NCBI RefSeq assembly: GCF_003231495.1
Contig: NZ_PQWO01000006.1
Coordinates: 150,001 to 182,000 of the forward strand
Reading direction: 5' to 3'
DNA: 32,000 nt
From: Acaryochloris thomasi RCC1774
GTDB taxonomy: Bacteria; Cyanobacteriota; Cyanobacteriia; Thermosynechococcales; Thermosynechococcaceae
Under the pieces are notes generated by a model that was not told the origin of the DNA, did not search any database, and was given only the letters and a program-made list of their open reading frames with translations. A program made the position numbers and the translations under genes. Positions 4,527 through 32,000 of the stretch are shown piece after piece (the stretch's first letter is position 1; each line of letters starts with the position of its first letter).

Positions 4527-6872
4527 ATGAATCAATATTTAAGGCAACTCCGTTCTAGATCTCAAGATAATAATAACGATATGCAGGGTGAGGTAATCTC
4601 ACTCCCCTATGCAAGTTCCTTCGCTAGCGAGAGTAATGAAGGCGGGTTGGAACTGGGTCAACTTCTGGGCACGATACGGCGCAGATGGTTGCTAATCGTT
4701 GGTACAACTGCTGTTGTTACCGTCGGTACTTTTTTTTGGAGCATCACGCGCCCGGCACAATATCAGGGACAGTTTCAGATACTGGTAGAACCGGTAACGG
4801 CAGAATCTGAGGTTGTATCACGTGCCACAGGCGATCAAAAGAGCGTTACCGATCAAGACTTGGGTGAAACGCAACAGGCTAGCACGCTGCTTGATTATTC
4901 CACTCAGATTGAAGTGCTTTACAGTCGTAAGTTGCTCGACCCCGTTGTCAATAGGTTGCAGGATACGTTCCCCGAAATCACCTATGACATACTGCGCCGA
5001 AAATTGCAGATCTCTCGTCAGAGCGGTAGCTCGCAGGGCCAGGGGCGAGGTGAGGGTGCCGATACAACTAAGATTTTGCTTTTTGAGTATCAATCCCCGA
5101 ACCCTGAGGAAGTTAAACAAGTTTCACAGGACTTATCTCAGACCTATGTTAAGTACAGCTTGCAGGAGCGGCAAACAAACCTTCGGCGTGCGATTCAATT
5201 CACAGATAAGCAACTGCCTCTACTGAAAGCTCAGGTCAATCAGCTAGAACTACAGCTCCAGCAGTTTCGAGAACGCAACCGACTTGTTGACCCTGAGCAG
5301 TTGAGTCAGCAAGTCACCAGTGAACTCGGGAGTTTCCAGCAGCAGTTGATGAGTACGCAACTGGAGCTGTTGCAAAAGAAGCGCCTATATGCATCTCTAC
5401 AGGAACAGCTACAGCTTCAGCCTGACGGTGTTGAGGCAAGTTCTGTTCTGAGTCAAGCTCCTGACTATCGCAAGCTGGTTGAGCAGCTCCAAGAACTGGA
5501 GACACAGCTTGAAATTGAGTCTGCTCAATTGACGGCAGATCACCCTGTCATCATTGATCTCAAATCACAGCGAGATCGTCTCTTGCCACTGGTCGCGCAG
5601 AGGGCAAAAAGCACCTTGGGATCCAATCTATATGAGAAGTTCGGGGATGCAACTTCTTTGCCCTATCAAAATGAACTGCGGCAGGCGTTGGGGCAACAAT
5701 TGGTGGACACGGCTCTAGAAGTCCAGGCCTTGGAGGCGCGGGCGCGAGGAACGGAAGAACTGACGAAAACCCTAGAAACGCGTGTTGTACAGCTGCCAAA
5801 AATAGCGCGTGAGCATGAAGCTTTAGAGCGGCAGTTGGCTATTGCCACCGATAATCTTCAGGGTTTTATGAAAACGCGTGAAGAACTCTTGATTAGCGCT
5901 GCGAGACAGGAAGTTCCCTGGGAGCTGATTGAGCCTCCCACGCAGCCGGGAGAGGTGGCTCTCGCCGATCTCCCTCGTGATTTATCGTTGGGAAGCTTCT
6001 TGGGACTGATTTTGGGACTCGGCCTATCTATCTTGATTGACAAGGCGAGTAAGACAATTCATGGCGTTGATGAGCTGCGATCGATTGCGGAGCTACCTAT
6101 CCTGGGTAAAATTCCCCTCAATGGCAACCTGGATGAGTCAGTTGTTGAGCTAGGGCATCCTGTTGAGCAGCTAGAGGTGCAGGGGCTGTCTGTTTCTGAA
6201 GAAGAGTACCCGCTAGAGGGAATAGGGTACGGCGTCTCGCCGTTTTTAGAAGCCTTCCGCTCGCTCAGCATTCAGCTCCAGATGTTGAGGCCGGATTCAC
6301 CGATCCGATCGCTGGTTGTTAGTTCCTCTATGCCTGAGGAAGGTAAATCAACGGTTGCTTCACATTTGGCTAAAACCGCAGCGTCGATGGGTAAAAGGGT
6401 CTTGCTGGTAGACGCTGATTTACGGGTTCCCTCAGTCCATTCTCTGTTCTCAATGGAGCAGCGGCCCGGATTAAGTGAGTTGACGACGATGGATTTTGAT
6501 CTAGAAACGGTTATCCAGCCCAGTCCCCACGAAGAAGGTCTTTTTGTGCTGACCTCTGGTACTCAACCGTCAGATCCGACCCGCTTTCTTGCGTCTCAAA
6601 AGATGCACGCGCTCATGGATAGCTTTCTAGATATGTTTGATCTAGTTATTTACGATACGCCGCCATTGGGGCTTTCTGAGACGGTTCTGATGAGTACGCT
6701 CGTGGATGGCTTGTTACTGGTTACAAAGCTGGGTCTGGCTAAGCACTCTGATCTCAAAGAAACCTTGGATAAGCTCAGGCAGTCTCGGGTATCGGTCCTT
6801 GGCTTCGTCGCCAATGGGGTGAAGACTCAGGCTTCAGCTAGCAGCGCCTACGGGAAATATATGAATGGATAG
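4527..6872 (+). CDS. Polysaccharide co-polymerase with C-terminal BY-kinase-type ATPase domain (Wzc/GumC/EpsB-like, PCP-2a architecture)
   Basis: The ORF track starts at TTG 4491; ATG 4527 (MNQYLRQL...) is more plausible. It has an N-terminal TM (WLLIVGTTAVVTVGTFFW), a long Q/L/E-rich coiled-coil region, and a second TM (LGSFLGLILGLGLSILI). The P-loop domain carries Walker A SSMPEEGKST, Walker A' LLVDADLRVPS and Walker B DLVIYDTPP. The C-terminal tail has only two Tyr (AYGKYMNG). Confidence 0.8.
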   Translation: MNQYLRQLRSRSQDNNNDMQGEVISLPYASSFASESNEGGLELGQLLGTIRRRWLLIVGTTAVVTVGTFFWSITRPAQYQGQFQILVEPVTAESEVVSRATGDQKSVTDQDLGETQQASTLLDYSTQIEVLYSRKLLDPVVNRLQDTFPEITYDILRRKLQISRQSGSSQGQGRGEGADTTKILLFEYQSPNPEEVKQVSQDLSQTYVKYSLQERQTNLRRAIQFTDKQLPLLKAQVNQLELQLQQFRERNRLVDPEQLSQQVTSELGSFQQQLMSTQLELLQKKRLYASLQEQLQLQPDGVEASSVLSQAPDYRKLVEQLQELETQLEIESAQLTADHPVIIDLKSQRDRLLPLVAQRAKSTLGSNLYEKFGDATSLPYQNELRQALGQQLVDTALEVQALEARARGTEELTKTLETRVVQLPKIAREHEALERQLAIATDNLQGFMKTREELLISAARQEVPWELIEPPTQPGEVALADLPRDLSLGSFLGLILGLGLSILIDKASKTIHGVDELRSIAELPILGKIPLNGNLDESVVELGHPVEQLEVQGLSVSEEEYPLEGIGYGVSPFLEAFRSLSIQLQMLRPDSPIRSLVVSSSMPEEGKSTVASHLAKTAASMGKRVLLVDADLRVPSVHSLFSMEQRPGLSELTTMDFDLETVIQPSPHEEGLFVLTSGTQPSDPTRFLASQKMHALMDSFLDMFDLVIYDTPPLGLSETVLMSTLVDGLLLVTKLGLAKHSDLKETLDKLRQSRVSVLGFVANGVKTQASASSAYGKYMNG

Positions 6873-6938
6873 CCCGTACCATATCTGCAAAAGTGGTTAG
6901 TACAGGAGCAAGACTAAGAATTAGGGTAAGCGATCTCT

Positions 6939-6962
6939 GAAACACTTATACGGCAGTGTTTC
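6939..6962 (+). terminator. 8-bp stem hairpin (GAAACACT-loop-AGTGTTTC) in the convergent intergenic region; weak terminator candidate
   Basis: Read directly, 67 nt after the Wzc-like stop. A second 6-bp hairpin (GCACTG gtcat CAGTGC, 7004-7020) is followed by a T-rich run. Neither is a canonical intrinsic terminator. Confidence 0.25.
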
Positions 6963-7158: not shown

Positions 7159-8529
7159 TTAAGAAGAGTTTGATAGTAAGTGTAAGTCTCTAGCCGCTTT
7201 TTTCTCCTGTTCTTCGTGCCAGCGAATGCTCAACAGGCAGGCAATCGTGATCATTTGTCCAGGTTCTTCCATTTGGGTCAAGATGCATCCTAAGACGGCT
7301 GTAGACAGCAGCATAAATTTCCCAAGGTCGTCTACGCAGACTCTTCTCCAAACAATGGAGCAGAGATAGATGTAGGCGGATAGGCCAACAACGCCAGTGT
7401 CTCCCCAAATGCCTGCCCAGGTATATAGAGGGAAATAGACCGTTGACTCCCGTGGCAGATAGCTAATGGTGACGATATCGAAAATTCGCTGCGATGCTGG
7501 ATGAATGGTGGCCCCCAGGGGAACAAGCATTGATTTGTAGTCCCGCATGACCCAGCCACCGAGACGGGTAACGGTATGTCCTGGTCCTAAACCGATAAGC
7601 CAGTTGAGGGGAGATGTAAAGTAGGAGGGAATAATGCGGAATGCGGCAAATTTGGTGCGAGCCGCTAATCCGTCGAATCCCCAGATATCTCGATTAATCC
7701 AGTTTTGGTAGGGCTGTAAAATCTCTAGCTTGAGATTTAAAAGTGCCCAGCCACAAACGACGGTCACTGCGGCGATAGAGACGAGGTAGATGCAAAGCTT
7801 TAAGGGATCCTTGACCTTTGTGAGCAGTAAAAGACCGTAGCCAGCTGCGAGGGCCATGAAAATTTGCTTGGAGTCGGAAACTTGAATTTGATAGCAGGCG
7901 GCTAGCAACAGTCCTCCCCGAATCCAGCGGGGCACAAATTTATAGTTGAGAAAGAAATATAGGGCGAAGTAGAAAGAGACGGTACAAGAGACGTAGTTCG
8001 CTGCGCTGCCGCCGCCGCCGCCGAAGACGCCTGTGATATTGTCCTGGATTGTGCCACCTGAGGGTTTAGGGTAGATGCCGATGGGGAGGAGAACGGATTG
8101 GGCGAGTGCCAATACGAGGTTGCACAGGGCAAATTTGAGGACGTATTCTTTGAGCCTGAGAAAAGATACCCCGGCGAGGGGGACGGCCAGCATTGCGGCC
8201 AGAAAAAGAAAGGCCTCTGTTTGGAAAAGGTACTGGAGGGCAATGTTGACAATACCAGCCTGGTTAACGACGGCACTGAACACGGTAACCAGTAGGACTA
8301 CGATCATCCCCACTAAAATATCCCAGACGAGATTAATTTGTGATCGCCTTTTGGTCCGAATCGTAAATAATATAAAAACAGAAATAGCCGGAACAAATAT
8401 GAAGTGGAGAAAGTTGATAATATCTGGAGCGCCGAAGGACGTTAAGAAACGCGGAAAGAAGACGATTGCATAGGCAATCAAAATCAATGATGAGTTACTG
8501 ATGAGTCCTTTCTTGCTGGAATTTATCAT
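7159..8529 (-). CDS. Polytopic membrane protein, Wzy / O-antigen-ligase-like (putative glycan polymerase)
   Basis: 456 aa with roughly 10-12 hydrophobic helices. A larger loop (...NWINRDIWGFDGLAARTKFAAFRIIPSYFTSPLNWLIGLGPGHT...) resembles Wzy_C/O-antigen-ligase-type proteins. It sits in a glycan locus. The assignment is by pattern only. Confidence 0.5.
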   Translation of the reverse strand: MINSSKKGLISNSSLILIAYAIVFFPRFLTSFGAPDIINFLHFIFVPAISVFILFTIRTKRRSQINLVWDILVGMIVVLLVTVFSAVVNQAGIVNIALQYLFQTEAFLFLAAMLAVPLAGVSFLRLKEYVLKFALCNLVLALAQSVLLPIGIYPKPSGGTIQDNITGVFGGGGGSAANYVSCTVSFYFALYFFLNYKFVPRWIRGGLLLAACYQIQVSDSKQIFMALAAGYGLLLLTKVKDPLKLCIYLVSIAAVTVVCGWALLNLKLEILQPYQNWINRDIWGFDGLAARTKFAAFRIIPSYFTSPLNWLIGLGPGHTVTRLGGWVMRDYKSMLVPLGATIHPASQRIFDIVTISYLPRESTVYFPLYTWAGIWGDTGVVGLSAYIYLCSIVWRRVCVDDLGKFMLLSTAVLGCILTQMEEPGQMITIACLLSIRWHEEQEKKAARDLHLLSNSS

Positions 8530-8589: not shown

Positions 8590-9711
8590 TTATCTGATGG
8601 ATGTATAGAGTTCTAGAAGCGTTTGGGCCGTATTTTGTTTAGAAAATGTCTGGGTTTTGGAGAGCGGATCTGGAGAAGGGGACATTAGAGAGGTTGCGAT
8701 CGCATCCCTCAACCCAGCCCTTGGCTCATCGTTGAGCGGAAAATAGACACAATTCTCAGACCCCACTTCTCGAAAAATAGGAATATCAGAGCAAACAACC
8801 CTACACCCCCAAGACAAAGCCTCCACTAACGGCAGACAAAAGCCTTCGGTAGAAGAGGGAATGGCAAATAGACTGCACGCTTGATACAGCCAGCAAAGCT
8901 CTTCATCCGTTAAAGCAGAGAGAAATATAACTTTGTCCTGTAAAGCCAGTGATTGAATCAGATCGTGGAGCGCATCTGTCTCAGGACCAGCGCTACCCAC
9001 TAAGATAAGCTGCATATCCTCAGCGATGGCCTTCTTCTTTAAGAGATCAGCATAGGCTTGGATCAATAAATCAAGATTCTTATTCTTCCGATGCTGGGCC
9101 ACACAAAGGATAAAGTTTGAGACAGCGCCATCAGTCAGTTTTTGGGGCGCTTTGATTTTAATATCGCTAAAGTCTACGTAGTTGTAGACAACCGCTCTCT
9201 GCTGCGTAGGTCGCTCAGAGAAGAAAGCGTTGAGGGACTGCAGGGTCACCTGAGACACGCAGGCAAGTCCATCACTGCCTTGGACACACTGCTTTAAGAA
9301 CCCGCGATTAAACCACACCTGCGGGTAGCCAAAGTTCTCTGGACATTCATAGGGGTAGAGATCATGGATGCTGGAGACAATCGGCACCTCAAACCACTGG
9401 CGAATGAAGGGGAACGGAAAAGATAAATGGAGAAGGTCGGGCTTGATCTGGCGAACAAGCTTAGGTAGACCGAAGACAAACCATCGATTTCGGGAGAGAG
9501 ACGTATTGTTGATATCAACGGTCACCAGGCTAATTTTAGGGGACTGAAGATTAAAAGACGCCTCAAAATAATCCTGCTGCCATGCCCCAATAAGCACGGT
9601 CACCTGGCTGACCTGCTCAGTATCAGCTAAGCATTGAGCTAAGTTCGCTGCGTGTCGGCAAACGCCTGTGGGCTTGACCGGTCGGTGGAGGGCCGGAATG
9701 AGGACATGCAT
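8590..9711 (-). CDS. Glycosyltransferase, GT-B fold, family 4-like
   Basis: 373 aa. The C-terminal E-x7-E region is ...FAIPSSTEGFCLPLVEALSWGCRVVCSDIPIFREVG..., typical of the Glycos_transf_1 domain. Confidence 0.8.
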   Translation of the reverse strand: MHVLIPALHRPVKPTGVCRHAANLAQCLADTEQVSQVTVLIGAWQQDYFEASFNLQSPKISLVTVDINNTSLSRNRWFVFGLPKLVRQIKPDLLHLSFPFPFIRQWFEVPIVSSIHDLYPYECPENFGYPQVWFNRGFLKQCVQGSDGLACVSQVTLQSLNAFFSERPTQQRAVVYNYVDFSDIKIKAPQKLTDGAVSNFILCVAQHRKNKNLDLLIQAYADLLKKKAIAEDMQLILVGSAGPETDALHDLIQSLALQDKVIFLSALTDEELCWLYQACSLFAIPSSTEGFCLPLVEALSWGCRVVCSDIPIFREVGSENCVYFPLNDEPRAGLRDAIATSLMSPSPDPLSKTQTFSKQNTAQTLLELYTSIR

Positions 9712-9780: not shown

Positions 9781-11025
9781 CTATGCAATGACGGGCGCTG
9801 CCTCATCTACTGTTGTTTGATAGAGGTCACCTAAACGCTTACCCACAACGTTCCAGCTAAAGTTCTCCTGGACAAGCTGGCGGCCTGCCATTCCCATCTG
9901 CACCCGCAGCTCGGCATCTTGAGCTAACTTTTGCATTGCTACGGCCATATCCTGAATCACCTGCTCCGGCGCGTGACCGGGGACTTTAATGCCCGTCTGA
10001 TCGGTCACCTGAATGGCAGGACCGCCGAGGTCGAGGCAAATCACCGGACGACCAGAGGCCATCGCTTCAATGCATACCCACCCGCCTGAATCGTGCAGGC
10101 TGGGGTGAACGAGAACGTGGCTTTCCCCTAGGCGTTCTAGGGTATCTTCACGGGACAAACGCCCCCAAAATTTGACTCGATCGCCAACGCCACAGTCCTC
10201 GGCAAGGCGCTGTAGATTCTCTAATTCTGGTCCTTCTCCCGCTAACCAGTACTCTGCCTCTGGCAGATTGGCAGCGGCAAAAGCCTGGATCCCCAGGTGG
10301 AAGCCTTTCCAGTGAAGTAGGCGGCCCATGCTGATAAACCGAACCGGCTCCGAGGCCGGCAGAGGATAGGCGTTGAGGACCGCAATCTCTTCGTCTAGCA
10401 AACCCACCTCAGGTACGATCTGCACTTGAGAAGCGCCCATTCGATACAGCCGCTTGGCGGTATCATCGGTCGTCGCTCGTACGACAGCCGTATTGCGAAT
10501 GGTGAGACCGACTAGCGGGTCTCGCTGACCGATATTGCGGACGAGATCTCTGGCTAGTTCATAGAAGCGCGCCCGGAAACTAAAGTCTTTCCAGAACTTT
10601 GGCGGAGCAGATTCGCCACCGCCGACGGGCCCCCAAATGAAGGGCACGGGTAAAAAGGCAACGGGGCTGGGAGCCGAGTATTTGACGAAGGTAACGTGGT
10701 GGATCACGTCCAGCCCGATTTCTTCGTGCAGGCGTCGAGCCACAAAGTAAGCCTGAATTTGCCACAGATAGTAGTGAACCTGCATGGCTCCAGACTGCCC
10801 CCACCGCATACTGTCTTTCCAGAAGGGCAGGGTGAAGTAAACAAATTTGAGATTGGGATTGGGATGGGCCGCTAGCTCCGCTTCGATGGCCTCTTTGCTT
10901 TCATCGGGTCGGGTTAACACCCAAACCTGGTGGTGTTTTGCAATTTCGCAGGCGACATTCCAGCCGACCCCTCGCTCTGATCCTCTGCCAGGTTCACAGG
11001 AATAGGCAGATATGAGTACTTTCAT
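9781..11025 (-). CDS. Glycosyltransferase, GT-B fold, family 4-like
   Basis: The likely start is ATG 11025 (MKVLISAYSCEPGRGSERGVGWNV...), not 11079, which would overlap the upstream gene by 23 nt. The C-terminal motif is ...VLVHPSLHDSGGWVCIEAMASGRPVICLDLGGP... Confidence 0.8.
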   Translation of the reverse strand: MKVLISAYSCEPGRGSERGVGWNVACEIAKHHQVWVLTRPDESKEAIEAELAAHPNPNLKFVYFTLPFWKDSMRWGQSGAMQVHYYLWQIQAYFVARRLHEEIGLDVIHHVTFVKYSAPSPVAFLPVPFIWGPVGGGESAPPKFWKDFSFRARFYELARDLVRNIGQRDPLVGLTIRNTAVVRATTDDTAKRLYRMGASQVQIVPEVGLLDEEIAVLNAYPLPASEPVRFISMGRLLHWKGFHLGIQAFAAANLPEAEYWLAGEGPELENLQRLAEDCGVGDRVKFWGRLSREDTLERLGESHVLVHPSLHDSGGWVCIEAMASGRPVICLDLGGPAIQVTDQTGIKVPGHAPEQVIQDMAVAMQKLAQDAELRVQMGMAGRQLVQENFSWNVVGKRLGDLYQTTVDEAAPVIA

Positions 11026-11056
11026 TATGCGTTTGCCTCGTCTCAGATCAGGAGCG

Positions 11057-12322
11057 TTAAGAAGTTTTGACTGGAACACGGTCCACAGATGTTGATGGCG
11101 AAGCCGTTCCCTGTGTGGAAGGATTACCGCTGGCTTTGATGCGCTCGATCACCTTCAAGAAGGCATTGACTTCGCAGTACAGGTTCTGCTCACTGAAGAC
11201 CTCTGTGGATCGCTCGCTATACCGTTGACGGACTTCCGTGTCGGCCATTTCCAAAATAGCCTCGGTTAAGGCTGCAGGCTTACCGCAGGGATAGACGAGG
11301 CCGTTATAGCGATGACGGACGGTGTCGTTGTAGCCCCAGTTGCCGCAGTGATCGCTGAGGATCGGAGGGGTTCCAGAGGCCATGGCTTCGGAGACCACGA
11401 GGGGATGGGGATCAATCCAGGATGTGACGACAAAGGTATCTAAGGCTGCAAAGTAGAGGGGAATCTTCGCCTGGTTGACGAAGCCGTAGTTGATGACTTC
11501 GCCGTCGAGTTCTGCAAGGCGTTTGTCAATGGCTGGCTCTAGATCACCACCGCCAAATAGAACGCCCCGGATTCTAGAATCTTGTTGATGGGCAGATGCG
11601 ATCGCATCTATAAACTCGAACGGATTTTTACGTTCAATATACTTACCCATGAAGCCATAGAGGATCGTATTTTCATCCCAGGCTAGCTCTCGGCGAATGC
11701 GCTGCAGCTCATCGGGCTGAGCCGCGATGGTTTGCTCAAAGCGATCGCCGTCGATGGGGTGGCAGCCGCGCACAATTTTGGCATCGTCAACGCCATAGTG
11801 CCGTAGGTGAATCTCGTTGTGATCGCCGCAGGAGAGCCAGTAGTCGGCCAGATTATTCATCCAGGGATAAAGGACCGACATCACAATTAATCGCTGCCGA
11901 CTGTAGCGAGCATCGGACATCATGCTGGCGTCGTTTTGCATAATCAACGGCACCCCGCGCAGCTTGCATAGAAATGCGGTGAGCCGATAGGAATAATTGA
12001 CGAAGCTCTGCATAAACACGGCATCGCATCGCTCAGGGTGAATGTAATCAAGGAGCCCTGGACTAATAACAGTGCTCTTACGCTGCGTCGGCACCTTACC
12101 CGAGAGATCTTTAAGATACTCGTGGTCGTAGCCGCTGGTGAGGTCAACATCCCAGGGTTGAGCGGCCTCCCCTAAAAAGCTGTCACCACTTTGTTGATTC
12201 TCGTCCGACAGGTAAAGAACCTTCAGCTCAAGGTCAGGATTTTCGCTCAGCTTACGCCAGAGAGGGCCATGATGCTGAGTAGGATGCGTAAACACAACGC
12301 ATAGACGAAATTTCTCGCTCAT
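11057..12322 (-). CDS. Putative glycosyltransferase (GT-B, Glycos_transf_1-like C-terminal half)
   Basis: 421 aa. ...FVVTSWIDPHPLVVSEAMASGTPPILSDHCGNWG... resembles the nucleotide-sugar-binding half of GT4 enzymes. The N-terminal half is not recognisable. Confidence 0.6.
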   Translation of the reverse strand: MSEKFRLCVVFTHPTQHHGPLWRKLSENPDLELKVLYLSDENQQSGDSFLGEAAQPWDVDLTSGYDHEYLKDLSGKVPTQRKSTVISPGLLDYIHPERCDAVFMQSFVNYSYRLTAFLCKLRGVPLIMQNDASMMSDARYSRQRLIVMSVLYPWMNNLADYWLSCGDHNEIHLRHYGVDDAKIVRGCHPIDGDRFEQTIAAQPDELQRIRRELAWDENTILYGFMGKYIERKNPFEFIDAIASAHQQDSRIRGVLFGGGDLEPAIDKRLAELDGEVINYGFVNQAKIPLYFAALDTFVVTSWIDPHPLVVSEAMASGTPPILSDHCGNWGYNDTVRHRYNGLVYPCGKPAALTEAILEMADTEVRQRYSERSTEVFSEQNLYCEVNAFLKVIERIKASGNPSTQGTASPSTSVDRVPVKTS

Positions 12323-14570: not shown

Positions 14571-14583
14571 TGAACGTCCCTAT

Positions 14584-16663: not shown

Positions 16664-16766
16664 GACTTTGACTCATTAAGGTTGCACTATTTAGAACGCA
16701 AGCAGGGGGAATTTGCATTAACTATGCTTAGTCTGCACCCGTATGAACTGTAGATAAAGTGAATCT

Positions 16767-18623: not shown

Positions 18624-18712
18624 ATGTTTGTGAGTATCAATAAATAATTTGAGTTAACAGATTTTCAGTACTTACTTCAATAGATCAATTACATTCTCCC
18701 CAATCCAGGACT

Positions 18713-19603: not shown

Positions 19604-19828
19604 AAACTGGACTCCGTTAAGTATTTAGACTTGCAAGCTCTATCGATAGAGATATCTCTTGCAACAACGTAACTTTCCCCTGTTCTGAACTACCCCACCC
19701 ATTTCTATGACTCTTCGTTGCGTTTTCCTGCGTGTAGATACAAGTTTCTTACTCTGGCGCAATAGATGCTGCTCGTATCATCTGTCATTCGGGCTTTAGG
19801 CTCAGGATGTATTTGAGCCTATATCTTG

Positions 19829-20719: not shown

Positions 20720-20842
20720 TTTTTAATCTAAGCGTTAGAAATATTGATGGGTTATACTTCGGGCTATTTAATTTCTGTTGTGCTAGTGATGCATCAATTT
20801 ACTAGAAACAAAAACGTTTTTCTCCAAAGAGTAGGCAGGCTT

Positions 20843-23707: not shown

Positions 23708-26419
23708 CTAATTTGATGTCTGTGTCGGCTCGTTGAAACGGATTGATATTTTCTGAGCCTCGTCCAAGCATGCTCCGAGCTGCTGAGCTACGTCTTGAAC
23801 GTAGGGCTGGCTCAGCATTTTTCCATGATAGCCTGGGACAGAATGAACTTCTATCTTCCCGTCGATTAACTCTCCCCAACCTAGGTCAGGCGCGCGATAT
23901 ACATGTTGCTGGTCAACATTTCGTTCAGTGGCTCGAAGAATGGTTAACGTATCTGAGTAGATTCTGGGTTCGTAGTCTTTGACGGCTTTGTAATTGGCTT
24001 GCGCGACTCGGTAGGTCACTTCATCGATCGTGGAACTCCAGTGAGGACGTGACTTAGATGAGAAGAAAGGACGAAGGAGCCTGTTCGAGTAACTTTTTTC
24101 CTTGAGCTGATGCTGTAGGAAATTAAGAAAATATTTCAGAAAAACGAGAGGATGAACTCGAAATCGCAGAAGATTCATCGCATTATAAAGCCACCTCTTC
24201 AACGGTGAGACATCCCGTATTGAGTCAAACAAGACCAGCAGTGCTACCTTTTGACCTTTCTGACGAAGTTGCTGGGCCATTTCAAAGGCTACGATACCGC
24301 CAAAGGAGTATCCTCCAAGAAAATAAGGTCCTTCTGGCTGAAACGTTCTTATTTCTTGAAGATAGTCTGCGGCCATGTCTTCAATGCGAACATTTGCAGA
24401 GTGCTGACCATCTAGAGCACGGGACTCTAAACCATAGAAGGGCTGCTCTGAGTCTAAAAGACTCGCTAAAACTCGAAAATTGAGGACGTGACCCCCTCTG
24501 CCACAAACGCAGAAAAAAGGAGGCTTAGCACCATGGGGCTGCAAGGGAACAATCGGAGACCAGGGAGCCGACTCATCTTTCTTACGGATTGTTTCGGCTA
24601 GCTGTTCAACGGTTGGTGCTTCAATCAAGGTCGCCAACGGTAGCTTTTGATCACAGACCATTTTGATCTGATTGAACAACTGCAGCGCTAACAACGAAGA
24701 GCCGCCTAGATCAAAGAAGTTATCATGCACGCCAACCTGGTCTACACCCAAAACAGTTTGCCAAATTTGTGTTAACTGTAGCTCTACGGGATTGCGAGGG
24801 GCAACGTAGTGGGCCTGATCTTGTTCGGCTTTGGCTGAAAGCTGATTGAGTGCATCAACTTTATCTTGTAATTGTTGACGCTCAACGGTGCCGAGGGGCT
24901 GCAGCTCACTTAATGTTGCTTCTGGCTGCTCAAGTGCTCGCTCTAGCAAAGTCACCCAGTGACGAAAGAGATCTTCGACTGTGGATTGCTCAAAAAGCTC
25001 TGTTCGATACTGAATATATCCGCCGAACTGATGGGGGGCTGGCTCTACAAAAATTGCTAGATCAAAGTCAGCGGTATCAACGCCCATTTCTTCTTTTGTT
25101 AGCGGTTGAGCGGTTACTGCATCAAGGGTCAGAGCCTGCTGGGGACCGCTCTGTTGACTTTGAAGGACGAACAACGCTCGGGATAGGGAAATACCTGCTA
25201 AATTCGGGAAATTGGCAATCTGTTGCAAAGGTACGTCAGGATAGTCATAAATTGCGGTGACTGTTTTCTGCTCCTGTTGGATAAGGTCACGAAAGGTTTG
25301 GTGACTAGAAACCTGGGTCCGCAAGGGCAAGATGTTATTGAAATACCCGATTAACTGCTGTGTGTCGCTGCTGCGCCCCGCGACTGGCGAACAGACGATG
25401 AGGTCCTTTTGGCCGCTATAGCAGTGCAGCAATGCTTTGAAGGATGCCAAAAGGACCGTGAATTGAGACTTACCTTCCTGCTGGCAAAAAGCGATGAGGG
25501 CTTGAGAGAGCGAGCTATCTATATTGAAAGTCTGGCAGCGTCCCTGCGTGCTTTGACTGGTTGAGTGGAGCCGATCTAGAGGTAGCTTGAGGGTTTCTGG
25601 AGAGTCTGTAAAAATTTGGTGCCAATAGTCTAGCTGAGGCGTCAATTGTTCACTCGCTAGCCATTGTTTTTGCCAAGCTGCGAAGTCAGCATATTGAAAG
25701 GGAAGATCTGTGAAAGATACTTCGCCTGAGCCTTTGGCATTGTAGAACGCAGATATTTCAGAAATGATCAGTCCTAAGGACCAACCGTCTGCCACCATGT
25801 GATGAACAACAATAACGAGTAAGGACTCATCGGCAGCTAAGCGGATCAGGCTGTAGTGGATGAGAGGTCCTTGAGCGAGGTCAAAGGGTTTCTTACTCAG
25901 CTCTGCAACTAAGCCTAAAGCTTGAACTTCAGGTTCAGGATGCTGCTGTAGGTCAGTACAGGTCAGTGCTGGGGCCGTTGTCTCAATGATGACGCTGGGA
26001 CCGTCCCCACTGGGAGGATAGATAGTCCTGAGAACTTCATGTCGCTTGACCAGGGTTTGTAGGGACTTTTCGAGCCGATCTGCGTCAAGATGACCGGTCA
26101 GTCGAAACGCCATGGGCAGATTGTAGGTACTGCTGCCAGGTTGGAGCTGATCGACTAGCCACAGACGTTCCTGGGCGATAGAAACGGGTAGAGGAGCATC
26201 GCGGGAAAGAAGCGGAATGGCGTTCGCTGCCTTTGCAGGACTGGCAACTGTTCTTTGCTGGCTGAGGAGATTGAGCAGCTCTGGTTTTGATTGGTGCAGG
26301 GCGGCCCGCAGCTCTGGGGTAACTCGACCTTTTGGAGCCCGGACGCGCAGCTTGTCGTCCTGCACGGAAATTTTAATCCCACGTTGGGACAGATCGGACA
26401 ACAGTTGTTCCAGGCTCAT
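23708..26419 (-). CDS. NRPS-like termination protein lacking an adenylation domain: docking - C - T - TE; copy 2, start overlaps the PKS stop
   Basis: 903 aa. Docking N-terminus MSLEQLLSDLSQRGIKISVQDDKLRVRAPKGRVTPELRAALHQSKPELLNLL. C motifs SIAQERLWLVDQL and HHMVADGWS (25778-25804). T motif FFDLGGSSLLA (Ser codon 24695-24697). TE motif GGYSFGG (Ser codon 24305-24307). ATG 26419-26417 overlaps the PKS TGA 26418-26416 (ATGA). Confidence 0.85.
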   Translation of the reverse strand: MSLEQLLSDLSQRGIKISVQDDKLRVRAPKGRVTPELRAALHQSKPELLNLLSQQRTVASPAKAANAIPLLSRDAPLPVSIAQERLWLVDQLQPGSSTYNLPMAFRLTGHLDADRLEKSLQTLVKRHEVLRTIYPPSGDGPSVIIETTAPALTCTDLQQHPEPEVQALGLVAELSKKPFDLAQGPLIHYSLIRLAADESLLVIVVHHMVADGWSLGLIISEISAFYNAKGSGEVSFTDLPFQYADFAAWQKQWLASEQLTPQLDYWHQIFTDSPETLKLPLDRLHSTSQSTQGRCQTFNIDSSLSQALIAFCQQEGKSQFTVLLASFKALLHCYSGQKDLIVCSPVAGRSSDTQQLIGYFNNILPLRTQVSSHQTFRDLIQQEQKTVTAIYDYPDVPLQQIANFPNLAGISLSRALFVLQSQQSGPQQALTLDAVTAQPLTKEEMGVDTADFDLAIFVEPAPHQFGGYIQYRTELFEQSTVEDLFRHWVTLLERALEQPEATLSELQPLGTVERQQLQDKVDALNQLSAKAEQDQAHYVAPRNPVELQLTQIWQTVLGVDQVGVHDNFFDLGGSSLLALQLFNQIKMVCDQKLPLATLIEAPTVEQLAETIRKKDESAPWSPIVPLQPHGAKPPFFCVCGRGGHVLNFRVLASLLDSEQPFYGLESRALDGQHSANVRIEDMAADYLQEIRTFQPEGPYFLGGYSFGGIVAFEMAQQLRQKGQKVALLVLFDSIRDVSPLKRWLYNAMNLLRFRVHPLVFLKYFLNFLQHQLKEKSYSNRLLRPFFSSKSRPHWSSTIDEVTYRVAQANYKAVKDYEPRIYSDTLTILRATERNVDQQHVYRAPDLGWGELIDGKIEVHSVPGYHGKMLSQPYVQDVAQQLGACLDEAQKISIRFNEPTQTSN
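23750..24547 (-). other. Copy 2: thioesterase domain (approximate)
   Basis: G-x-S-x-G as FLGGYSFGGIVAFEMA; LVLFDS and VPGYHGKM are Asp and His candidates. Confidence 0.75.
24575..24787 (-). other. Copy 2: thiolation (PCP) domain (approximate)
   Basis: YVAPRNPVELQLTQIWQTVLGVDQVGVHDNFFDLGGSSLLALQLFNQI. Confidence 0.8.
24890..26197 (-). other. Copy 2: condensation domain (approximate)
   Basis: Runs from SIAQERLWL to LLERALEQPEATLSELQPLG; HHMVADGWS at 25778-25804. Confidence 0.8.
26255..26419 (-). other. Copy 2: N-terminal docking domain (approximate)
   Basis: Residues 1-55. By hand alignment, 38 of the first 54 residues are identical to copy 1. Confidence 0.7.
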
Positions 26420-29400
26420 ATGAAAAACTCCTCCATCTCTTCTTCTTCCAGCTCTTCGGAAGGGGTGGATTCCGGCAGCAAGATATTGGCAACTCTCAGC
26501 TTATGTAAGAGTTCCCCTGTTAGCTCCTGCAATGTACTGCCGCCGATCAGCTGCTCCATGGCAACGTCAATTTGGAGTTGACTTTGGAGGCGGGTCCTCA
26601 GCTCAACACCCATGAGGGAATCTAGGCCGAGGCGATTGAGAGAGTCTTTCGACTTGGGCCGTCGAGAGGCCGGTAATCCCAAAACCTCAGCAGATTGAAC
26701 CTGTAAGTATTTCAGGAGTAGCGAAAGACTCTCTTCTTCTGATGCTGTTTTTAGCTGCTGGAGTAGTTCATCGATCTGAATCGAGTCGCTTCCTTCTGCG
26801 CTAGCTGCTGCGGAAATAGGGCTCGCTAGCTCAGACAGCAGACTTGTATAGGCTTCTCCTGAAAAGCGCTGGATGAAGGTGGACCAGTTAACGGGCAAGA
26901 CACCGACATGGCTTCGGGACTCGGCAATCATCTGCTCTAGAGCCTGAAGCCCCTGTTCTACGGGAATGGAGCTGATGCCTTGAGAGGATAAGCGTGCGCG
27001 GTCTTGTTCGCTCATGCTGGCGGCCATGCCGACCTCTGCCCAGGGACCCCAGCTGAGGCTGAGTCCAGGCAGGCCTAGGGACTGGCGGTAGTGGGCGAGG
27101 GCATCCATGAAGGCGTTGGCGGCGGCGTAGTTGCCTTGACCTTGGGCACCTAAGAGGGCGGCAACGGAGGAGAAGAACACCATGAAGTCTAGAGGGTGTT
27201 TCTGAGTGAGCTTGTGCAAATGCCAGGCTCCGTTGACTTTGGGTTCCATTACTTCGAGGATGCGATCGCAACTCTGCGAAACTAGCAATCCATCATCGAT
27301 TACCCCAGCCGCATGAATAATCCCACGCAGCGCCGGATACGGTTCGATCTCTTTGAGGGTCCGCTCCACAGCTTCTGCTTTGGAAACATCAGCCGCGACC
27401 ACATGGACTTGAGTTCCCGCCTCCTGAAGCTGGTCGATGACAGCCTGGGCCGTTGGACTTGCGCCCCGGCGTCCGGTCAGAGCGACATGCTTAGCCCCTT
27501 GTTTTGAAAGCCACTTGGCAATTTCTAAACCTAAAGCGCCTAATCCACCTGTTACTAAGTAGGTCGCATCTTCCCGAACAACCTCGGTTTTTGTTGGAGA
27601 TTGAGGAGGCTGAGAAATCACAACCTTACCAATGTGCTTGGCCTGGGCCATAAATCGGAACGCGCCGATATAGTCCTGCATCGGAAAGGCCGTGAAAGGC
27701 AGCGGTCTCAGGGAGCCGTCCTGGAAAGCGGCCATCAGGACCGTCAGCATCTCTTTGATGCGGGCGGGCTGCGGAACGGCAATGTCGTCGCCGAGATCGT
27801 AGGGCATATAGTTGATGTCTTTGCCCAGTGCCTTGGCTTCCTCTTGCGTCCACAGGCCAATTTTGCCCAGCTCTAGGAACCGACCGCCGCGACCGATGGT
27901 GTCAAAGGTCTTGGTCATGAAGTCACCTGCCAAGCTGTTGAGGACAACATCGACGCCCTCTCCGTTAGTCAAGGACAGCACTTCGTCAGCAAAGTCCAGC
28001 GTGCGGGAGTTCATGACGTGCTGAACACCCATCGATTTAAGAAAGTCCCACTTGCCCGGGCTAGCGGTGGCAAATACTTCAGCTCCAGCTCTTTGGGCGA
28101 GTTGGACGGCAGCTTGACCGACGCCACCGGCTGCGGCATGGATGAGGATGCGATCGCCCGCTTTAATCTCAGCCAGGGTGTGCAGACCATAGTAGGCGGT
28201 CAGATAGTTGGTGGGGACTGTCGCGGCTTCTTCAAAGCTTAGTTCGACAGGTTTGGGAATCACGAACTGGGCGTCAGCAATCACGTGGCTGCTGAGACAG
28301 TTGGTTGCGATCGCAACAATCACTGCATCACCCACGGCAAAATCAGTAACGCCGTCGCCCACAGAGGTTACAGTGCCTGCACATTCATAACCGAATGGCA
28401 TATTCTCAGGGTCTTCTAGCCCCAGAGTCTTAAAGTAATCCTGCAGCTTGCCCAAGACCGTGAGCACATCTTTAAAGTTCAAGCCCGTTGCCTGGACCTT
28501 GACCTCCACCTGAGCCGGTCCAGGAGTGGGTCGCTGCAGCGGCTCTAGCGTTAAATTCTCTAAAATCCCGTATTCCTTGAGCTTGAGCTGGAACGGTTGC
28601 TCAGCCTTTTTCTGCTCAGTCCGGCGGACCAATCGGGCGGTGTAGCGAACGTCCTGTCGATAGGCGACTTGCTTCTCTAAATCAACGCCTGTCACTTCAG
28701 CCAACAACGCCTCAGCCTTATTTGCCGCAGCAAACGGATCAAGGTCCACCATCTTGCAGTGCAGCTCGGGATGTTCTAGAGCAATCACGCGCCCTAGCCC
28801 CCATAAAGGAGACTGCTGAACCTGAACAGATTCTGGAACTTGTCCCACAGCTTGTGCCCCAGCGGTCACGAGCCAAACCCCAGCAGAAACATTGGCCTGA
28901 CTGAGAGCCTGGACAAGGTGCAGAACGCCGCCACAGGTTTTAACCTGCGTTTTTTGAATCTCAGGCAACGTCAATGTGCTCACCGCTTTAGTCGCTTGAT
29001 CAAGGCTTCCGAGGTGAACGACGCCGTAGCCCCCCTCTCGCTTCAGGTCAAGATTACTCAGTAATTGCTGAACGTCCTCAGGTGCTTCTGGATTGACGGT
29101 GTAGCGATCACCCTGCCGACCGTAGGCTGACCCGCTGGCAATCAACTTGCAATGATGGCCTTTGTCCTGTAGTGAGGTGGCAAGATTCTCCCCTACCTGT
29201 GCCTGATCCATAAAAATGAGCCAGTTATTCGGGATCTTTGCTACATCGCCTGCGCCGACCTCTTGGGGTTCCCAAGCATACTCGTATAGCCAGTCTTCAA
29301 CATTCTGCTGTAGACTTCGCATCAACGCCTCACGGCTGGCTCGTCGCAACGCTAGATCTCGAATCCGAGCAACCACGTTTCCGTGATCGTCCAACAGCGT

Positions 29401-32000
29401 CAGCGTTGCAGTCAAACTTTGGTCATCTCGCTGGAGCTGCTCGGCATGGCACCAAAGATGCGTCTCTGGCGCGCGATAAAGATCTAGAGCGGCCAAACTG
29501 ACCGGAACGTAGGTGTCATCAGAGTCCTCGCCGGAGAAGAGGGCACCCACGACCTGGAGACAGGAATCTAAGAGGGCCGGGTGCAGTTTGAATTGCTTGA
29601 TTTCAGAGGCAACAGAAGCGGGTAGCTCAATTTCTCCTAAGACCTGCTGAGGCTGCGTCCAAAGCTGCTTCACACCCTGGAAGGTTTCACCGTAGCCAAT
29701 GCCCTGATCTGCAAACTTCTGGTAGTGAGCCGCCGCCGCAATTGTTTCAGTATGTGCTGCCTTCAGCGCCGTCAAATCAACGGGAGGTACTTCTAATTCC
29801 TGGGGGACTCGCACATTGCCAGAAGCATGTAACGTCCAAACAGGTTCGGTCTGCTTCAGTTCTTTGAGGCTAAACACCTGGAACGAATAGCTCTGATTGC
29901 CCTCGGCATTAAGAACACACTGAAGCGTCTGCGTCTCATCGTCCGACAGCGCTAGCGCCCGTTGAACCTTGACATCTTCAACGGCTAATGTCTCAGATTG
30001 AATCAGGCTGGAGCCAGCAGCCAGCGCCATTTCCAGGTATCCAGTGGCGGGCATCACCGCTGTCTCAAACAGACAGTGATCGTTCAGAAAAGCTGGGATC
30101 GCAGGACTAACCTGAGACTCAAAGCAAATGTTAGTCATCCCAGCTAGATGGAGGCGCTGCCCCAATAGCGGATGCATCGTTTGACTACGGGCATCACTGG
30201 GAAGAGCCTGTCCCTGTATTTTTGGTGCAGGATCAATCCAGTGACGGTGACGCTGGAACGGATAGGTCGGCAGCGGCACCCGGTAGCGCTGCTCATCAAC
30301 ATAGAAGCCAGCCCAGTCCAGCTTGACACCAGCCTGCCAGAGCTGACCGACGGTTTCGAGTACAAAGCCAACGTCTGAAGCTTCCTCTTTAGGATGGCGA
30401 ATGGAGGAAAGCACGACTCGCTCAGCTCCAGTCTGCTTGGAAGCCAGAGACTTCAGCATCCGTCCAGGACCAACTTCCAGAAGGACGCGCGTTTCATCCT
30501 CTAACAGTTCCTTGACTCCAGCGGTGAAGCGCACCGTGGATCGGAGATGGTTCGCCCAGTAGCTAGGATCAGTAGCTTCTGCATCTGTAATCCAAGTTCC
30601 CGTCACGTTTGAAATGTAGGGAATCTGAGGCGGATTGAGCTGCACCTGTCGCACCCGCTCAGTGAAAGGCTCCAGGATAGGATCCATCATGAAGGAGTGA
30701 AAAGCGTGGGATGTGTGCAGGGTTCGGAAGTCAATACTTTCGTCTTCCAGCTTCTGCTTGAGAGCATCAATAGCCTCTGCAGGTCCGGCCACGGTACATA
30801 GAGATGGAGCATTACTGGTCGCCAGAGCGAGCTGATCATTCAACAGTGCTTCGACTTCATCTTCTGGCAAGAAAACGGTCAGCATCGAGCCTGACGGCAG
30901 GGACTGCATCAACCGGCCCCGTTCTGCAACGAGCGCCAACGCTTCTTCTAGCGAGAAGACGCCCGCTAAGCAAGCCGCCGTATATTCGCCAATGCTGTGG
31001 CCAATCATGGCCTGCGGCTGAATGCCCCAAGCCATCCAGAGCTGAGCAACGGCATACTCTGTGACAAAGAGCGCAGGCTGAGTGATGTTAGTTTGCTTCA
31101 GGAGCTCGGTGTTGGCTGCAGCATCTCCCGAGGTGTTGTAAATGATTTCGCGTAGATCTAGGCCAAGGTGCGGCTCTAGGATTTCTGCGCAGCGATCGAC
31201 TGTTTCTCTGTAAACGCGCTCTGTTTCGTAGAGATCGCGGCCCATATTGACGTATTGAGCGCCCTGTCCCGACAGCATAAAGACAATCGAAGGCTGATGG
31301 GTGTCGGGGGCGTAGATGGCTTCTTCGGGTTCCCATGTGGTTAGGGTTGCGATCGCATCCTCCCCACGTTCACAAACCACTGCTGTCCGATATTCGAACG
31401 CTCGCCGACCCACCTTTGATGTGTAGGCAACATCAGCTAGATTTTCAATCGGAGTCTCACGTAGATAGATAGCAAAATTTTCAACCGCCGCCGCCAGAGC
31501 TTCCTCTGTCTTGCCAGAAAGCACCAATAGCTGCCAGGAACGAGATTCTCCAGAGGCATCTATCTTGGGTGATTCTTCCAGTACCGCATGGGCATTGGTA
31601 CCCCCGACCCCGAACGAGCTAAGCCCTGCCCGACGTGGACCCCCATTCGTCTCCCAAGGCAGCAGCTCTTTGTTGATGTAAAAAGGGCTGTTCTCTAGAT
31701 CAAGCTGAGGATTCGGTGTTTCAAAGTTGACAACTGGCGGAATCTGCTTGTGCTTGAGCGCCAAGGTCGCCTTAATTAAACCCGCAACGCCTGCCGCTCG
31801 ATTCAGATGACCAATATTGCTTTTGATAGATCCCAGGGCACAGAATCCCTGTTGTTCGGTTTGCTCACGAAAGACTTTGGTTAAAGCTGCCACCTCAATG
31901 GGATCGCCCATTTGGGTTCCTGTACCGTGGGTCTCAATGTAGGAAATACTCTCAGGCTCAACTCCAGCCAGAGCGTGAGCCTCAGCAACTACATCTGCTT
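26416..32000 (-). CDS. Type I polyketide synthase, 3' portion: KS(partial)-AT-DH-ER-KR-ACP plus an acidic C-terminal docking tail; the 5' end lies beyond the window
   Basis: The track ORF starts at Met 31911, but the frame stays open to 32000. Hand translation upstream gives ...ADVVAEAHALAGVEPESISYIETHGTGTQ-MGDPIE, so the gene continues off-window. Domain motifs are listed in the sub-features. It ends ...LPESTPSEELEEEEMEEFFI. Confidence 0.95.
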   Translation of the reverse strand, partial: ADVVAEAHALAGVEPESISYIETHGTGTQMGDPIEVAALTKVFREQTEQQGFCALGSIKSNIGHLNRAAGVAGLIKATLALKHKQIPPVVNFETPNPQLDLENSPFYINKELLPWETNGGPRRAGLSSFGVGGTNAHAVLEESPKIDASGESRSWQLLVLSGKTEEALAAAVENFAIYLRETPIENLADVAYTSKVGRRAFEYRTAVVCERGEDAIATLTTWEPEEAIYAPDTHQPSIVFMLSGQGAQYVNMGRDLYETERVYRETVDRCAEILEPHLGLDLREIIYNTSGDAAANTELLKQTNITQPALFVTEYAVAQLWMAWGIQPQAMIGHSIGEYTAACLAGVFSLEEALALVAERGRLMQSLPSGSMLTVFLPEDEVEALLNDQLALATSNAPSLCTVAGPAEAIDALKQKLEDESIDFRTLHTSHAFHSFMMDPILEPFTERVRQVQLNPPQIPYISNVTGTWITDAEATDPSYWANHLRSTVRFTAGVKELLEDETRVLLEVGPGRMLKSLASKQTGAERVVLSSIRHPKEEASDVGFVLETVGQLWQAGVKLDWAGFYVDEQRYRVPLPTYPFQRHRHWIDPAPKIQGQALPSDARSQTMHPLLGQRLHLAGMTNICFESQVSPAIPAFLNDHCLFETAVMPATGYLEMALAAGSSLIQSETLAVEDVKVQRALALSDDETQTLQCVLNAEGNQSYSFQVFSLKELKQTEPVWTLHASGNVRVPQELEVPPVDLTALKAAHTETIAAAAHYQKFADQGIGYGETFQGVKQLWTQPQQVLGEIELPASVASEIKQFKLHPALLDSCLQVVGALFSGEDSDDTYVPVSLAALDLYRAPETHLWCHAEQLQRDDQSLTATLTLLDDHGNVVARIRDLALRRASREALMRSLQQNVEDWLYEYAWEPQEVGAGDVAKIPNNWLIFMDQAQVGENLATSLQDKGHHCKLIASGSAYGRQGDRYTVNPEAPEDVQQLLSNLDLKREGGYGVVHLGSLDQATKAVSTLTLPEIQKTQVKTCGGVLHLVQALSQANVSAGVWLVTAGAQAVGQVPESVQVQQSPLWGLGRVIALEHPELHCKMVDLDPFAAANKAEALLAEVTGVDLEKQVAYRQDVRYTARLVRRTEQKKAEQPFQLKLKEYGILENLTLEPLQRPTPGPAQVEVKVQATGLNFKDVLTVLGKLQDYFKTLGLEDPENMPFGYECAGTVTSVGDGVTDFAVGDAVIVAIATNCLSSHVIADAQFVIPKPVELSFEEAATVPTNYLTAYYGLHTLAEIKAGDRILIHAAAGGVGQAAVQLAQRAGAEVFATASPGKWDFLKSMGVQHVMNSRTLDFADEVLSLTNGEGVDVVLNSLAGDFMTKTFDTIGRGGRFLELGKIGLWTQEEAKALGKDINYMPYDLGDDIAVPQPARIKEMLTVLMAAFQDGSLRPLPFTAFPMQDYIGAFRFMAQAKHIGKVVISQPPQSPTKTEVVREDATYLVTGGLGALGLEIAKWLSKQGAKHVALTGRRGASPTAQAVIDQLQEAGTQVHVVAADVSKAEAVERTLKEIEPYPALRGIIHAAGVIDDGLLVSQSCDRILEVMEPKVNGAWHLHKLTQKHPLDFMVFFSSVAALLGAQGQGNYAAANAFMDALAHYRQSLGLPGLSLSWGPWAEVGMAASMSEQDRARLSSQGISSIPVEQGLQALEQMIAESRSHVGVLPVNWSTFIQRFSGEAYTSLLSELASPISAAASAEGSDSIQIDELLQQLKTASEEESLSLLLKYLQVQSAEVLGLPASRRPKSKDSLNRLGLDSLMGVELRTRLQSQLQIDVAMEQLIGGSTLQELTGELLHKLRVANILLPESTPSEELEEEEMEEFFI
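26419..26478 (-). other. PKS C-terminal acidic docking tail
   Basis: LPESTPSEELEEEEMEEFFI is an acidic run ending in hydrophobic residues. Short linear motifs of this kind are bound by TubC_N/beta-hairpin docking domains. Confidence 0.6.
26530..26760 (-). other. PKS acyl carrier protein domain (approximate)
   Basis: LNRLGLDSLMGVELRTRL; phosphopantetheinyl Ser codon at 26617-26619. Confidence 0.85.
26990..27575 (-). other. PKS ketoreductase catalytic domain, B-type-like (approximate)
   Basis: Rossmann motif YLVTGGLGALGLEIAKWL; HAAGVIDDGLL (an IDD variant of the LDD B-type marker); FSSVAALLGAQGQGNYAAANAFMD (Tyr codon 27127-27129). Confidence 0.85.
27615..28600 (-). other. PKS enoylreductase domain (approximate)
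   Basis: MDR-type fold with NADPH motif LIHAAAGGVGQAAVQLAQRAGAEVFATAS (about 28114-28140). Confidence 0.85.
29350..30176 (-). other. PKS dehydratase domain (approximate)
   Basis: HPLLGQRL N-terminus; LNDHCLFETAVMPATGYLEMA (His codon 30076-30078, with E in place of the usual G in H-x-x-x-G-x-x-x-x-P); GYGETFQG; LHPALLDSCLQ (D-x-x-x-Q). Confidence 0.8.
30400..31290 (-). other. PKS acyltransferase domain, predicted malonyl-CoA specific (approximate)
   Basis: FMLSGQGAQY; GHSIGE (Ser codon 30994-30996); HAFHS (30694-30708). The HAFH motif is the established malonyl-specific signature, whereas YASH indicates methylmalonyl. Confidence 0.85.
31565..32000 (-). other. PKS ketosynthase domain, C-terminal part
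   Basis: HGTGT (31915-31929), NIGHLNRAAG, and GTNAHAVLEE at the domain end. Confidence 0.9.

Follow-up and report, generated by a model that had tools for sequence, protein, structure and literature searches.

What is made by the 14 co-directional genes that in Acaryochloris thomasi RCC1774 lead from a reducing polyketide synthase (PKS) through two condensation-thiolation-thioesterase (C-T-TE) proteins into a series of sulfotransferases (STs), glycosyltransferases (GTs) and an ATP-binding cassette (ABC) exporter, and do they form one pathway or two? Cyanobacteria characteristically make sulfated polysaccharides; to our knowledge, only one biosynthetic locus for these (xss) has been dissected so far. 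The array lies in a stretch of 32,000 nucleotides (contig NZ_PQWO01000006.1, positions 150,001 to 182,000; hereafter, the window) of this marine, sheath-bearing cyanobacterium (PMC6002478). It consists of two separable modules joined end to end: a glycan block, from the sulfotransferase gene ST1 to the gene of a 456-aa membrane protein, and a PKS unit, made up of the PKS and the C-T-TE proteins 'a' and 'b' (Table 1).

The glycan block was found without any PKS or C-T-TE gene in four cyanobacterial contigs (L152, L153, L154 and L155). Their ST1 proteins are, respectively, 73, 63, 69 and 71% identical to that of the window, a range that matches the PKS-linked contig L004. Gene set and order in L152 and L153 are those of the window, and L153 is complete as far as the homolog of the 456-aa protein, with three GT4 genes; the ABC exporter is kept in L152, L153 and L154, the last of which is PKS-free up to its contig end, and a search of the four loci for PKS or C-T-TE remnants returned none. 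Because the block recurs in four loci that lack both PKS and C-T-TE, it is autonomous and works on its own. A preliminary description of this DNA had taken the whole array for a single, indivisible pathway; with the entire block present in L152, L153, L154 and L155, this view had to be given up. We also considered, and rejected, that ST1 and ST2 tailor the PKS product and that the ABC protein is dedicated to exporting it, as all three genes are present in PKS-free blocks.

The PKS unit is distributed more narrowly. Close relatives of the C-T-TE proteins (52–94% identity) were limited to metagenome contigs and a single, fragmentary metagenome-assembled genome (MAG); a scan of genome contigs with the C-T-TE alignment gave relatives of at most 42% identity, a metagenome scan with the ketosynthase-acyltransferase (KS-AT) part gave relatives of at most 60%, and the PKS homolog search found no ortholog (best full-length match, 44%). 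Five contigs link the PKS unit to the glycan block (L001, L002, L004, L005 and L151), at 69–87% amino-acid identity to 'b' (79% for L001/L002, 79% for L005, 87% for L151, which begins inside 'a', and 69% for L004). In all five, which are the clade contigs with readable downstream DNA, C-T-TE is followed by ST and then by ABC in one orientation. This junction was kept despite gene gain and loss on both of its sides: L004 retains a single full C-T-TE gene ('a' lost) and a single upstream ST gene (ST2 lost), while in L005 (2782-6831) 'b' is fused C-terminally to an AidB-like acyl-CoA dehydrogenase, giving a protein of 1349 aa right at the ST1 junction. The linkage of the PKS unit to the block is shown to be clade-restricted but invariant; the co-occurrence that the preliminary description proposed to look for in other genomes was thus found at the junction in five of five close-clade contigs and in no distant relative.

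The relation between the two modules is asymmetric, in that the block is independent of the PKS unit and the PKS clade was never seen without the block. An accessory module would give such asymmetry, which also fits an adjacency inherited within a narrow clade. We favour, at a probability of roughly 0.45, the reading in which a locus for sulfated exopolysaccharide (EPS) acquired the PKS unit, in the A. thomasi clade only, as an optional add-on for lipidation, so that a lipid-modified sulfated glycan is a possible product. The statement that no cyanobacterial example has been described agrees with our literature search, which found no such locus.

Pfam and motif analysis bore out a fully reducing PKS module, truncated at the edge of the window, and two C-T-TE proteins. 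With its reading frame still open at base 32000, the PKS gene extends past the window, as does the assembly line, and the KS N-terminus and everything upstream lie outside it. The AT motifs (GHSIG/HAFH) are of the malonyl-type signature, and the motifs of the enoylreductase (ER; HAAAGGVG), ketoreductase (KR; GLGALG/IDD/NYAAAN), dehydratase (DH; HPLLG...DSCLQ) and acyl carrier protein (ACP; GLDS) are likewise intact. Because these motifs are present, the module should, as predicted from its sequence, add one fully reduced C2 unit. An acidic tail, ...EELEEEEMEEFFI, follows the ACP at the C-terminus of the protein, with ...STPSEELEEEEMEEFFI as its terminal residues; the PKS stop codon overlaps the start of 'a' as ATGA (−4 nt).

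Both C-T-TE proteins carry a TubC_N docking domain (E 1e-17 to 4e-18 in Pfam), followed by C at residues 77-520, T at 548-612 and TE at 634-887. Since C ends at 520 and T begins at 548, there is no space for an adenylation (A) domain. Protein 'a' contains the motifs HHMVADG, GGSS and GYSFG, and HHxxxDG, GGxS and the TE GxSxG/D/H triad are invariant in an alignment of 15 family members. In the PDB, the C domain is closest to canonical C domains of nonribosomal peptide synthetases (NRPSs), namely TycC6, PvdL and Txo (E 1e-76 to 1e-60), with Bamb_5915 (6cgo) being a much weaker match (84 bits versus 260 bits for TycC6) and PapA5 not being among the 60 best PDB matches. The docking domains of 'a' and 'b' are 65% identical, the C domains 67%, the T domains 54% and the TEs only 31% (23708-24520 in 'a' and 20843-21655 in 'b'); both TEs retain the Ser/Asp/His triad, with the serine at S705 in 'a' and S706 in 'b'. 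As the paralogs are alike in docking, C and T and only 31% identical in TE, they probably share a donor and differ in the release step; the duplication of the C-T-TE gene appears to have diversified release, not condensation.

The pairing of an N-terminal TubC_N domain with an acidic donor tail resembles, at the level of sequence, the junctions between a short linear motif (SLiM) and a β-hairpin docking domain in TubC (tubulysin), Kj12 (rhabdopeptide) and Bamb_5915 (enacyloxin) (PMC9113145). A single short docking motif is able to recruit several docking-domain subunits, and a docking-C enzyme is able to release a chain onto a free acceptor (PMC9113145). In L004 (516-851), a stand-alone TubC_N ORF of 111 aa shares 4-nt overlaps with the end of the PKS and with the sole C-T-TE gene. 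A C-T-TE order without A domain also ends SyrE of syringomycin synthesis, whose T domain is loaded in trans by SyrB1 (A-T) via SyrC (PMC8949500). The window proteins are like SyrE in this order, in lacking an A domain and in having intact catalytic motifs; unlike it, they are separate, duplicated proteins with β-hairpin docking that follow a PKS, and neither an A-T partner nor a shuttle was found in the 32 kb. The distant C-T-TE locus L006 encodes an acyl-CoA dehydrogenase and a second C-T unit without A domain.

For the glycan block, Pfam confirms three clear sulfotransferases (ST1–ST3), a fused ABC exporter and five glycosyltransferases, of which one belongs to GT2 and four to GT4. ST3 is kept at 71–94% in six loci. 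The exporter resembles PglK, MsbA and HepA, scoring under every curated cut-off of NCBIfam. The convergent Wzc-like gene holds up as one for a polysaccharide co-polymerase (PCP)/bacterial tyrosine kinase (BY-kinase): its product has Wzz and P-loop matches in Pfam, two transmembrane (TM) segments and a TIGR01007 score of 139.5 bits against a cut-off of 108 (NCBIfam). The 456-aa protein has no Pfam or NCBIfam match and its single-sequence AlphaFold2 (AF2) model was unusable (pLDDT 41); a homolog of 55% identity stands at the equivalent position in the PKS-free L153. No gene for a priming phosphoglycosyltransferase, a Wzx/MOP flippase or Wza/OPX was found in the window (no match to MOP, Bac_transf or Glycos_transf_4 among its open reading frames (ORFs) of at least 100 aa) or in the parts seen of the PKS-free loci; these steps must hence be encoded elsewhere or be done differently. 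Upstream of the ST/ABC genes in L152, L153 and L155 lies a gene for a giant DUF4347/CBM6/CBM35/Malectin/TIG protein (1657–2266 aa), of whose DUF4347/CBM6/CBM35/Malectin type no homolog was found in the window. HpsJ and the exosortase EpsH are encoded nearby in L153.

The fourth, 'cryptic' sulfotransferase of the preliminary description, a 315-aa protein, is supported by predicted fold. It has no match in Pfam or NCBIfam, and profile tests (hhalign with the families of ST1/2 and of ST3, hmmsearch of PDB sequences, and a Pfam scan of 65 members of its family) gave nothing significant. An AlphaFold model built on 65 members of its family, which at E≤1e-3 counts 2652 cluster representatives, reached a pLDDT of 92.7. 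In a Foldseek search of the PDB with this model, ranks 1–29 were all sulfotransferases (TM-scores of 0.43–0.50), with SULT7A1 (E 4.6e-6), TPST2 and Stf0 as top matches. The motifs RSGNH and RDPxNxxAS are invariant in the family, and the model places them where the loops binding 3′-phosphoadenosine-5′-phosphosulfate (PAPS) would be. The predicted structure therefore supports a PAPS-dependent sulfotransferase fold with motifs resembling those that bind the 5′-phosphosulfate (5′-PSB) and the 3′-phosphate (3′-PB), and the protein looks like a member of an undescribed sulfotransferase family.

From domain content and intact motifs, together with the autonomy of the block and its clade-restricted linkage, we infer the chemistry, the loading in trans and the coupling of the modules as follows. 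The block with Wzc would be a widespread, self-sufficient locus for a sulfated heteroglycan. Working in the cytoplasm, five GTs would assemble a repeat unit bound to a lipid carrier, primed by an enzyme encoded elsewhere, and four PAPS-type sulfotransferases would sulfate it there; the PglK/MsbA-like ABC protein would then translocate the repeat unit in place of a Wzx flippase, and the 456-aa membrane protein and Wzc would polymerise and export the glycan. The PKS and the two docking-C-T-TE proteins, confined to the A. thomasi clade, would be the end of an assembly line, in which the malonyl-specific, fully reducing module would yield a saturated acyl-S-ACP and its acidic tail would recruit either β-hairpin docking domain. 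In each of the two proteins, the C domain would condense the incoming acyl chain with an acceptor bound to the T domain that follows it; in the absence of an A domain, this acceptor would have to be loaded in trans. The two strongly diverged TEs would release the product onto two different nucleophiles. The acyl or acyl-aminoacyl product may finally end up on the sulfated glycan or leave the cell together with it. A narrower version, in which one docking tail passes the saturated acyl(-aminoacyl) chain from the PKS to both C-T-TE proteins and the divergent TEs of the A. thomasi clade esterify it onto two positions of the multiply sulfated oligosaccharide repeat, is in our judgement less likely than not; neither its product, a lipidated sulfated EPS or a sulfated glycolipid, nor such a use of a TE domain is known to have been described in cyanobacteria.

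Several results weigh against such a lipidation add-on. No A domain, A-T didomain or aminoacyl shuttle was found in the 32-kb window by Pfam analysis of its ORFs, which leaves the loading of the acceptor unexplained. There is no adaptor enzyme, since PKS-linked blocks have no gene that the PKS-free ones lack. The association is confined to a narrow clade of about genus to family level, a distance over which neutral retention of adjacency is plausible. Homologs of the block are absent from 80 distant C-T-TE genome loci and 64 PKS metagenome loci, with the exception of L013 (see below). An alignment of the 123-nt C-T-TE/ST1 intergenic region revealed no conserved element beyond the closest relative, and a scan for sigma-70 promoters and terminators was uninformative, finding fewer sites than in shuffled controls and none at the junctions.

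Many of these observations suit another explanation, nearly as probable as the add-on, in which a larger PKS/NRPS line, reaching beyond base 32000 and ending with the PKS and the two C-T-TE proteins, makes a free lipid or lipo-amino acid, and the EPS block is an unrelated neighbour whose adjacency was inherited and not selected. Consistent with it are the autonomy of the block in the four PKS-free loci, its same gene content with or without PKS, the lack of a conserved junction element, a PKS gene that extends past the window, C domains that look canonical and peptide-bond-forming, and distant C-T-TE relatives that end ordinary PKS lines without glycan genes (L006 and the 80 genome loci). It is less easily reconciled with the co-occurrence, adjacency and orientation in five of five clade contigs despite gene gain and loss on both sides. 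Nor is there a compositional break where the modules meet: a trough of low GC content at third codon positions (GC3; 0.38–0.46) at 15716-21913 extends from the T/TE region of 'b' through ST1, ST2, ABC and the ST-like gene, compared with 0.53–0.64 in the PKS and 0.59 in GT4b/c, and thus spans the junction of PKS unit and block. The phylogeny of the block does not cleanly track the presence of the PKS. The ST1+ABC+ST3 distance to the window is 0.24 for the PKS-free L152 versus 0.28 for the PKS-linked L004, and the neighbour-joining (NJ) tree of these three proteins is a near-trichotomy; with L153 as root, only 4 of 200 bootstraps recover the PKS-linked loci as monophyletic, a result that depends on the rooting.

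Also at odds with unrelated neighbours is an independent locus, L013 (196-22389 of a Waterburya MAG chromosome), that pairs a docking-C-T-TE with the same type of ABC exporter and GT4 genes. It encodes KS-AT-ACP-aminotransferase, GT8, cupin, C-A-T and docking-C-T-TE, followed by an ABC exporter that is 41% identical to that of the window and by three GT4 genes, and is probably a cluster for a glycosylated β-amino lipopeptide. Glycosylated lipopeptide clusters of cyanobacteria follow a hassallidin-type logic. Like such clusters, L013 probably among them, the window has a PKS/NRPS line ending in a docking-C-T-TE and then an ABC exporter and GT4 genes; in L013, however, the preceding module contains an A domain, and sulfotransferases, Wzc and a block homologous to the glycan block are lacking.

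An improbable alternative is that the product of the PKS and C-T-TE proteins serves as the lipid acceptor for glycan assembly in place of a polyprenyl-phosphate primer, with the ABC protein exporting a lipid-anchored sulfated glycan. The window has no priming GT and its exporter is of the MsbA/PglK kind, as this would have it. The PKS-free loci keep the full block, though, and they too show no priming enzyme in the regions seen, from which it follows that priming is supplied otherwise; moreover, Wzc and its candidate Wzy-like partner would imply polymerisation on a conventional carrier.

The closest analogy named in the preliminary description was mycobacterial sulfolipid-1 (SL-1), which is made by a Mas-like iterative Pks2 using methylmalonyl-CoA, the stand-alone acyltransferases PapA1 and PapA2 (C-domain homologs with neither carrier nor TE domains) and the sulfotransferase Stf0, which acts on the free disaccharide, and is exported by MmpL8, of the RND type. 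A reducing type I PKS, two paralogs of the condensation superfamily, sulfation and a sugar scaffold are common to both systems. Every defining feature tested differed, however: the AT is malonyl-type, unlike that of Pks2; the C domains are canonical NRPS-type domains inside docking-C-T-TE modules, unlike PapA; ST1–ST3 match Sulfotransfer_1/3 only and are not Stf0-type; and the exporter is an ABC protein, not MmpL. The analogy is thus one of roles only, and since the STs and the ABC protein are kept in PKS-free blocks, both belong to the glycan block and are not the counterparts of Stf0 and of a dedicated lipid exporter. An obligate SL-1-like pathway to a small sulfated glycolipid, with the GTs making a short oligosaccharide that the STs sulfate, the C-T-TE proteins acylating as PapA1/PapA2 do, the ABC protein exporting and no polymer being formed, is the least probable reading and very unlikely: although all needed roles are in one co-directional array, two acylating paralogs are present and the window lacks a priming phosphoglycosyltransferase and Wzx, the ST/GT/ABC block is conserved without PKS or C-T-TE and hence does not depend on them, Wzc and a polytopic candidate polymerase flank it, and the defining features tested were not those of SL-1.

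Among the described systems, the glycan block comes close to Synechocystis xss (synechan) and the further ST-containing EPS clusters of cyanobacteria catalogued alongside it, with which it shares STs among many GTs, a PCP/Wzc partner, a cyanobacterial host and an outer-membrane export component encoded elsewhere (PMC8205485). As is typical of xss, STs (three recognised by Pfam and one by predicted fold) and multiple GTs (five) cluster with Wzc in the window; unlike xss, the window has a fused ABC exporter in place of Wzx, no priming GT, four ST-type genes, one of which is of an unannotated family, and the PKS/C-T-TE unit next to the block. Sulfotransferase genes of cyanobacteria are reported to occur mostly in EPS clusters of the Wzx/Wzy or the ABC type (PMC8205485). 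Plasmid tblastn searches with ST1 and C-T-TE gave no close match; ST1 did match five Synechocystis plasmid records, of which none was among the 25 best places listed (29.5–52.5% identity).

The described case in cyanobacteria of a PKS-made lipid with glycosylation and ABC-type export is the heterocyst glycolipid system (hgl/dev) of the Nostocales, with a single GT and the tripartite DevBCA exporter. Unlike the window, this system has no C-T-TE protein and no sulfation. Its PKS is of the type that makes polyunsaturated fatty acids (PUFAs) (PMC4247773).

The PKS-free loci and the window together define a second, widespread type of sulfated-glycan block, with an ABC protein in place of Wzx, four ST-type genes and, among these, a large unannotated family of sulfotransferase fold; to this block a small marine clade has joined a PKS termination unit. 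Should the two modules cooperate, the lipid-modified sulfated glycan would have consequences for the properties of sheath and biofilm and for biomaterial engineering. Should they not, the locus would still be a clean natural experiment, because versions of the block with and without PKS exist. The paired C-T-TE proteins, with no A domain and diverged TEs, also offer a tractable case for loading in trans and for branched chain release.

The arrangement of the array was reproduced by the ORF map as first described, with 14 minus-strand genes running from base 32000 to 7159, a plus-strand, Wzc-type ORF converging on the far end, and gaps of −4, 153, 123, 225, 89, 103, 70, 13, 68, 158, ~31, 69 and 60 nt. 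The ~31-nt gap is valid only with the ATG start of GT4 (c) at 11025 (MKVLISAY...), not with the GTG at 11079; the homolog of this protein in L153 has 413 aa.

Table 1. Features of the PKS unit, the glycan block and its surroundings, with the ORFs that contain them; coordinates refer to the window unless a contig is named.
Feature	Coordinates	ORF	Strand	Basis
Type I PKS module, truncated at window end; partial KS (C-terminal)-AT-DH-ER-KR-ACP	26416..32000	26416-31911+	-	Pfam
Termination module 'a', TubC_N docking-C-T-TE without A domain, 903 aa	23708..26419	23708-26419	-	Pfam, motifs
Termination module 'b', TubC_N docking-C-T-TE without A domain, 903 aa	20843..23554	20843-23554	-	Pfam, motifs
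Sulfotransferase ST1, Sulfotransfer_1/3, first gene of glycan block	19829..20719	19829-20719	-	Pfam; 100% identical to C1752_02325 of A. thomasi RCC1774
Sulfotransferase ST2, paralog of ST1 (~45% identity)	18713..19603	18713-19603	-	Pfam; tblastn cross-matches
Fused TMD-NBD ABC exporter (ABC_membrane + ABC_tran)	16767..18623	16767-18623	-	Pfam; NCBIfam
315-aa sulfotransferase-fold protein ('cryptic' ST), unannotated family	15716..16663	15716-16663	-	Predicted structure
GT2 glycosyltransferase	14584..15645	14584-15645	-	Pfam
GT4 glycosyltransferase (a)	13440..14570	13440-14570	-	Pfam
Sulfotransferase ST3, partial Sulfotransfer_1 match; PKSGTH and RDLRD motifs	12481..13371	12481-13371	-	Pfam, sequence
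GT4 glycosyltransferase (b)	11057..12322	11057-12322	-	Pfam
GT4 glycosyltransferase (c), likely ATG start 11025; ORF reaches GTG 11079	9781..11025	9781-11079	-	Pfam, sequence
GT4 glycosyltransferase (d)	8590..9711	8590-9711	-	Pfam
456-aa polytopic membrane protein, candidate Wzy/O-antigen-ligase-like, ends block	7159..8529	7159-8529	-	Hydropathy
Wzc-type polysaccharide co-polymerase/BY-kinase, convergent	4527..6872	4491-6872	+	Pfam Wzz + P-loop
DUF4347/CBM proteins of PKS-free loci	L152:2325-9125; L153:2903-7876; L155:2810-8233			

Rfam and tRNA scans of the window gave no matches. On the left flank, two genes lie on the minus strand, uvrB (1-1533, its frame open from 1533 to 1 and running off the window start) and a gene for an LmeA-like phospholipid-binding protein (2033-2788); with this housekeeping flank, the left border of the locus is the Wzc gene.

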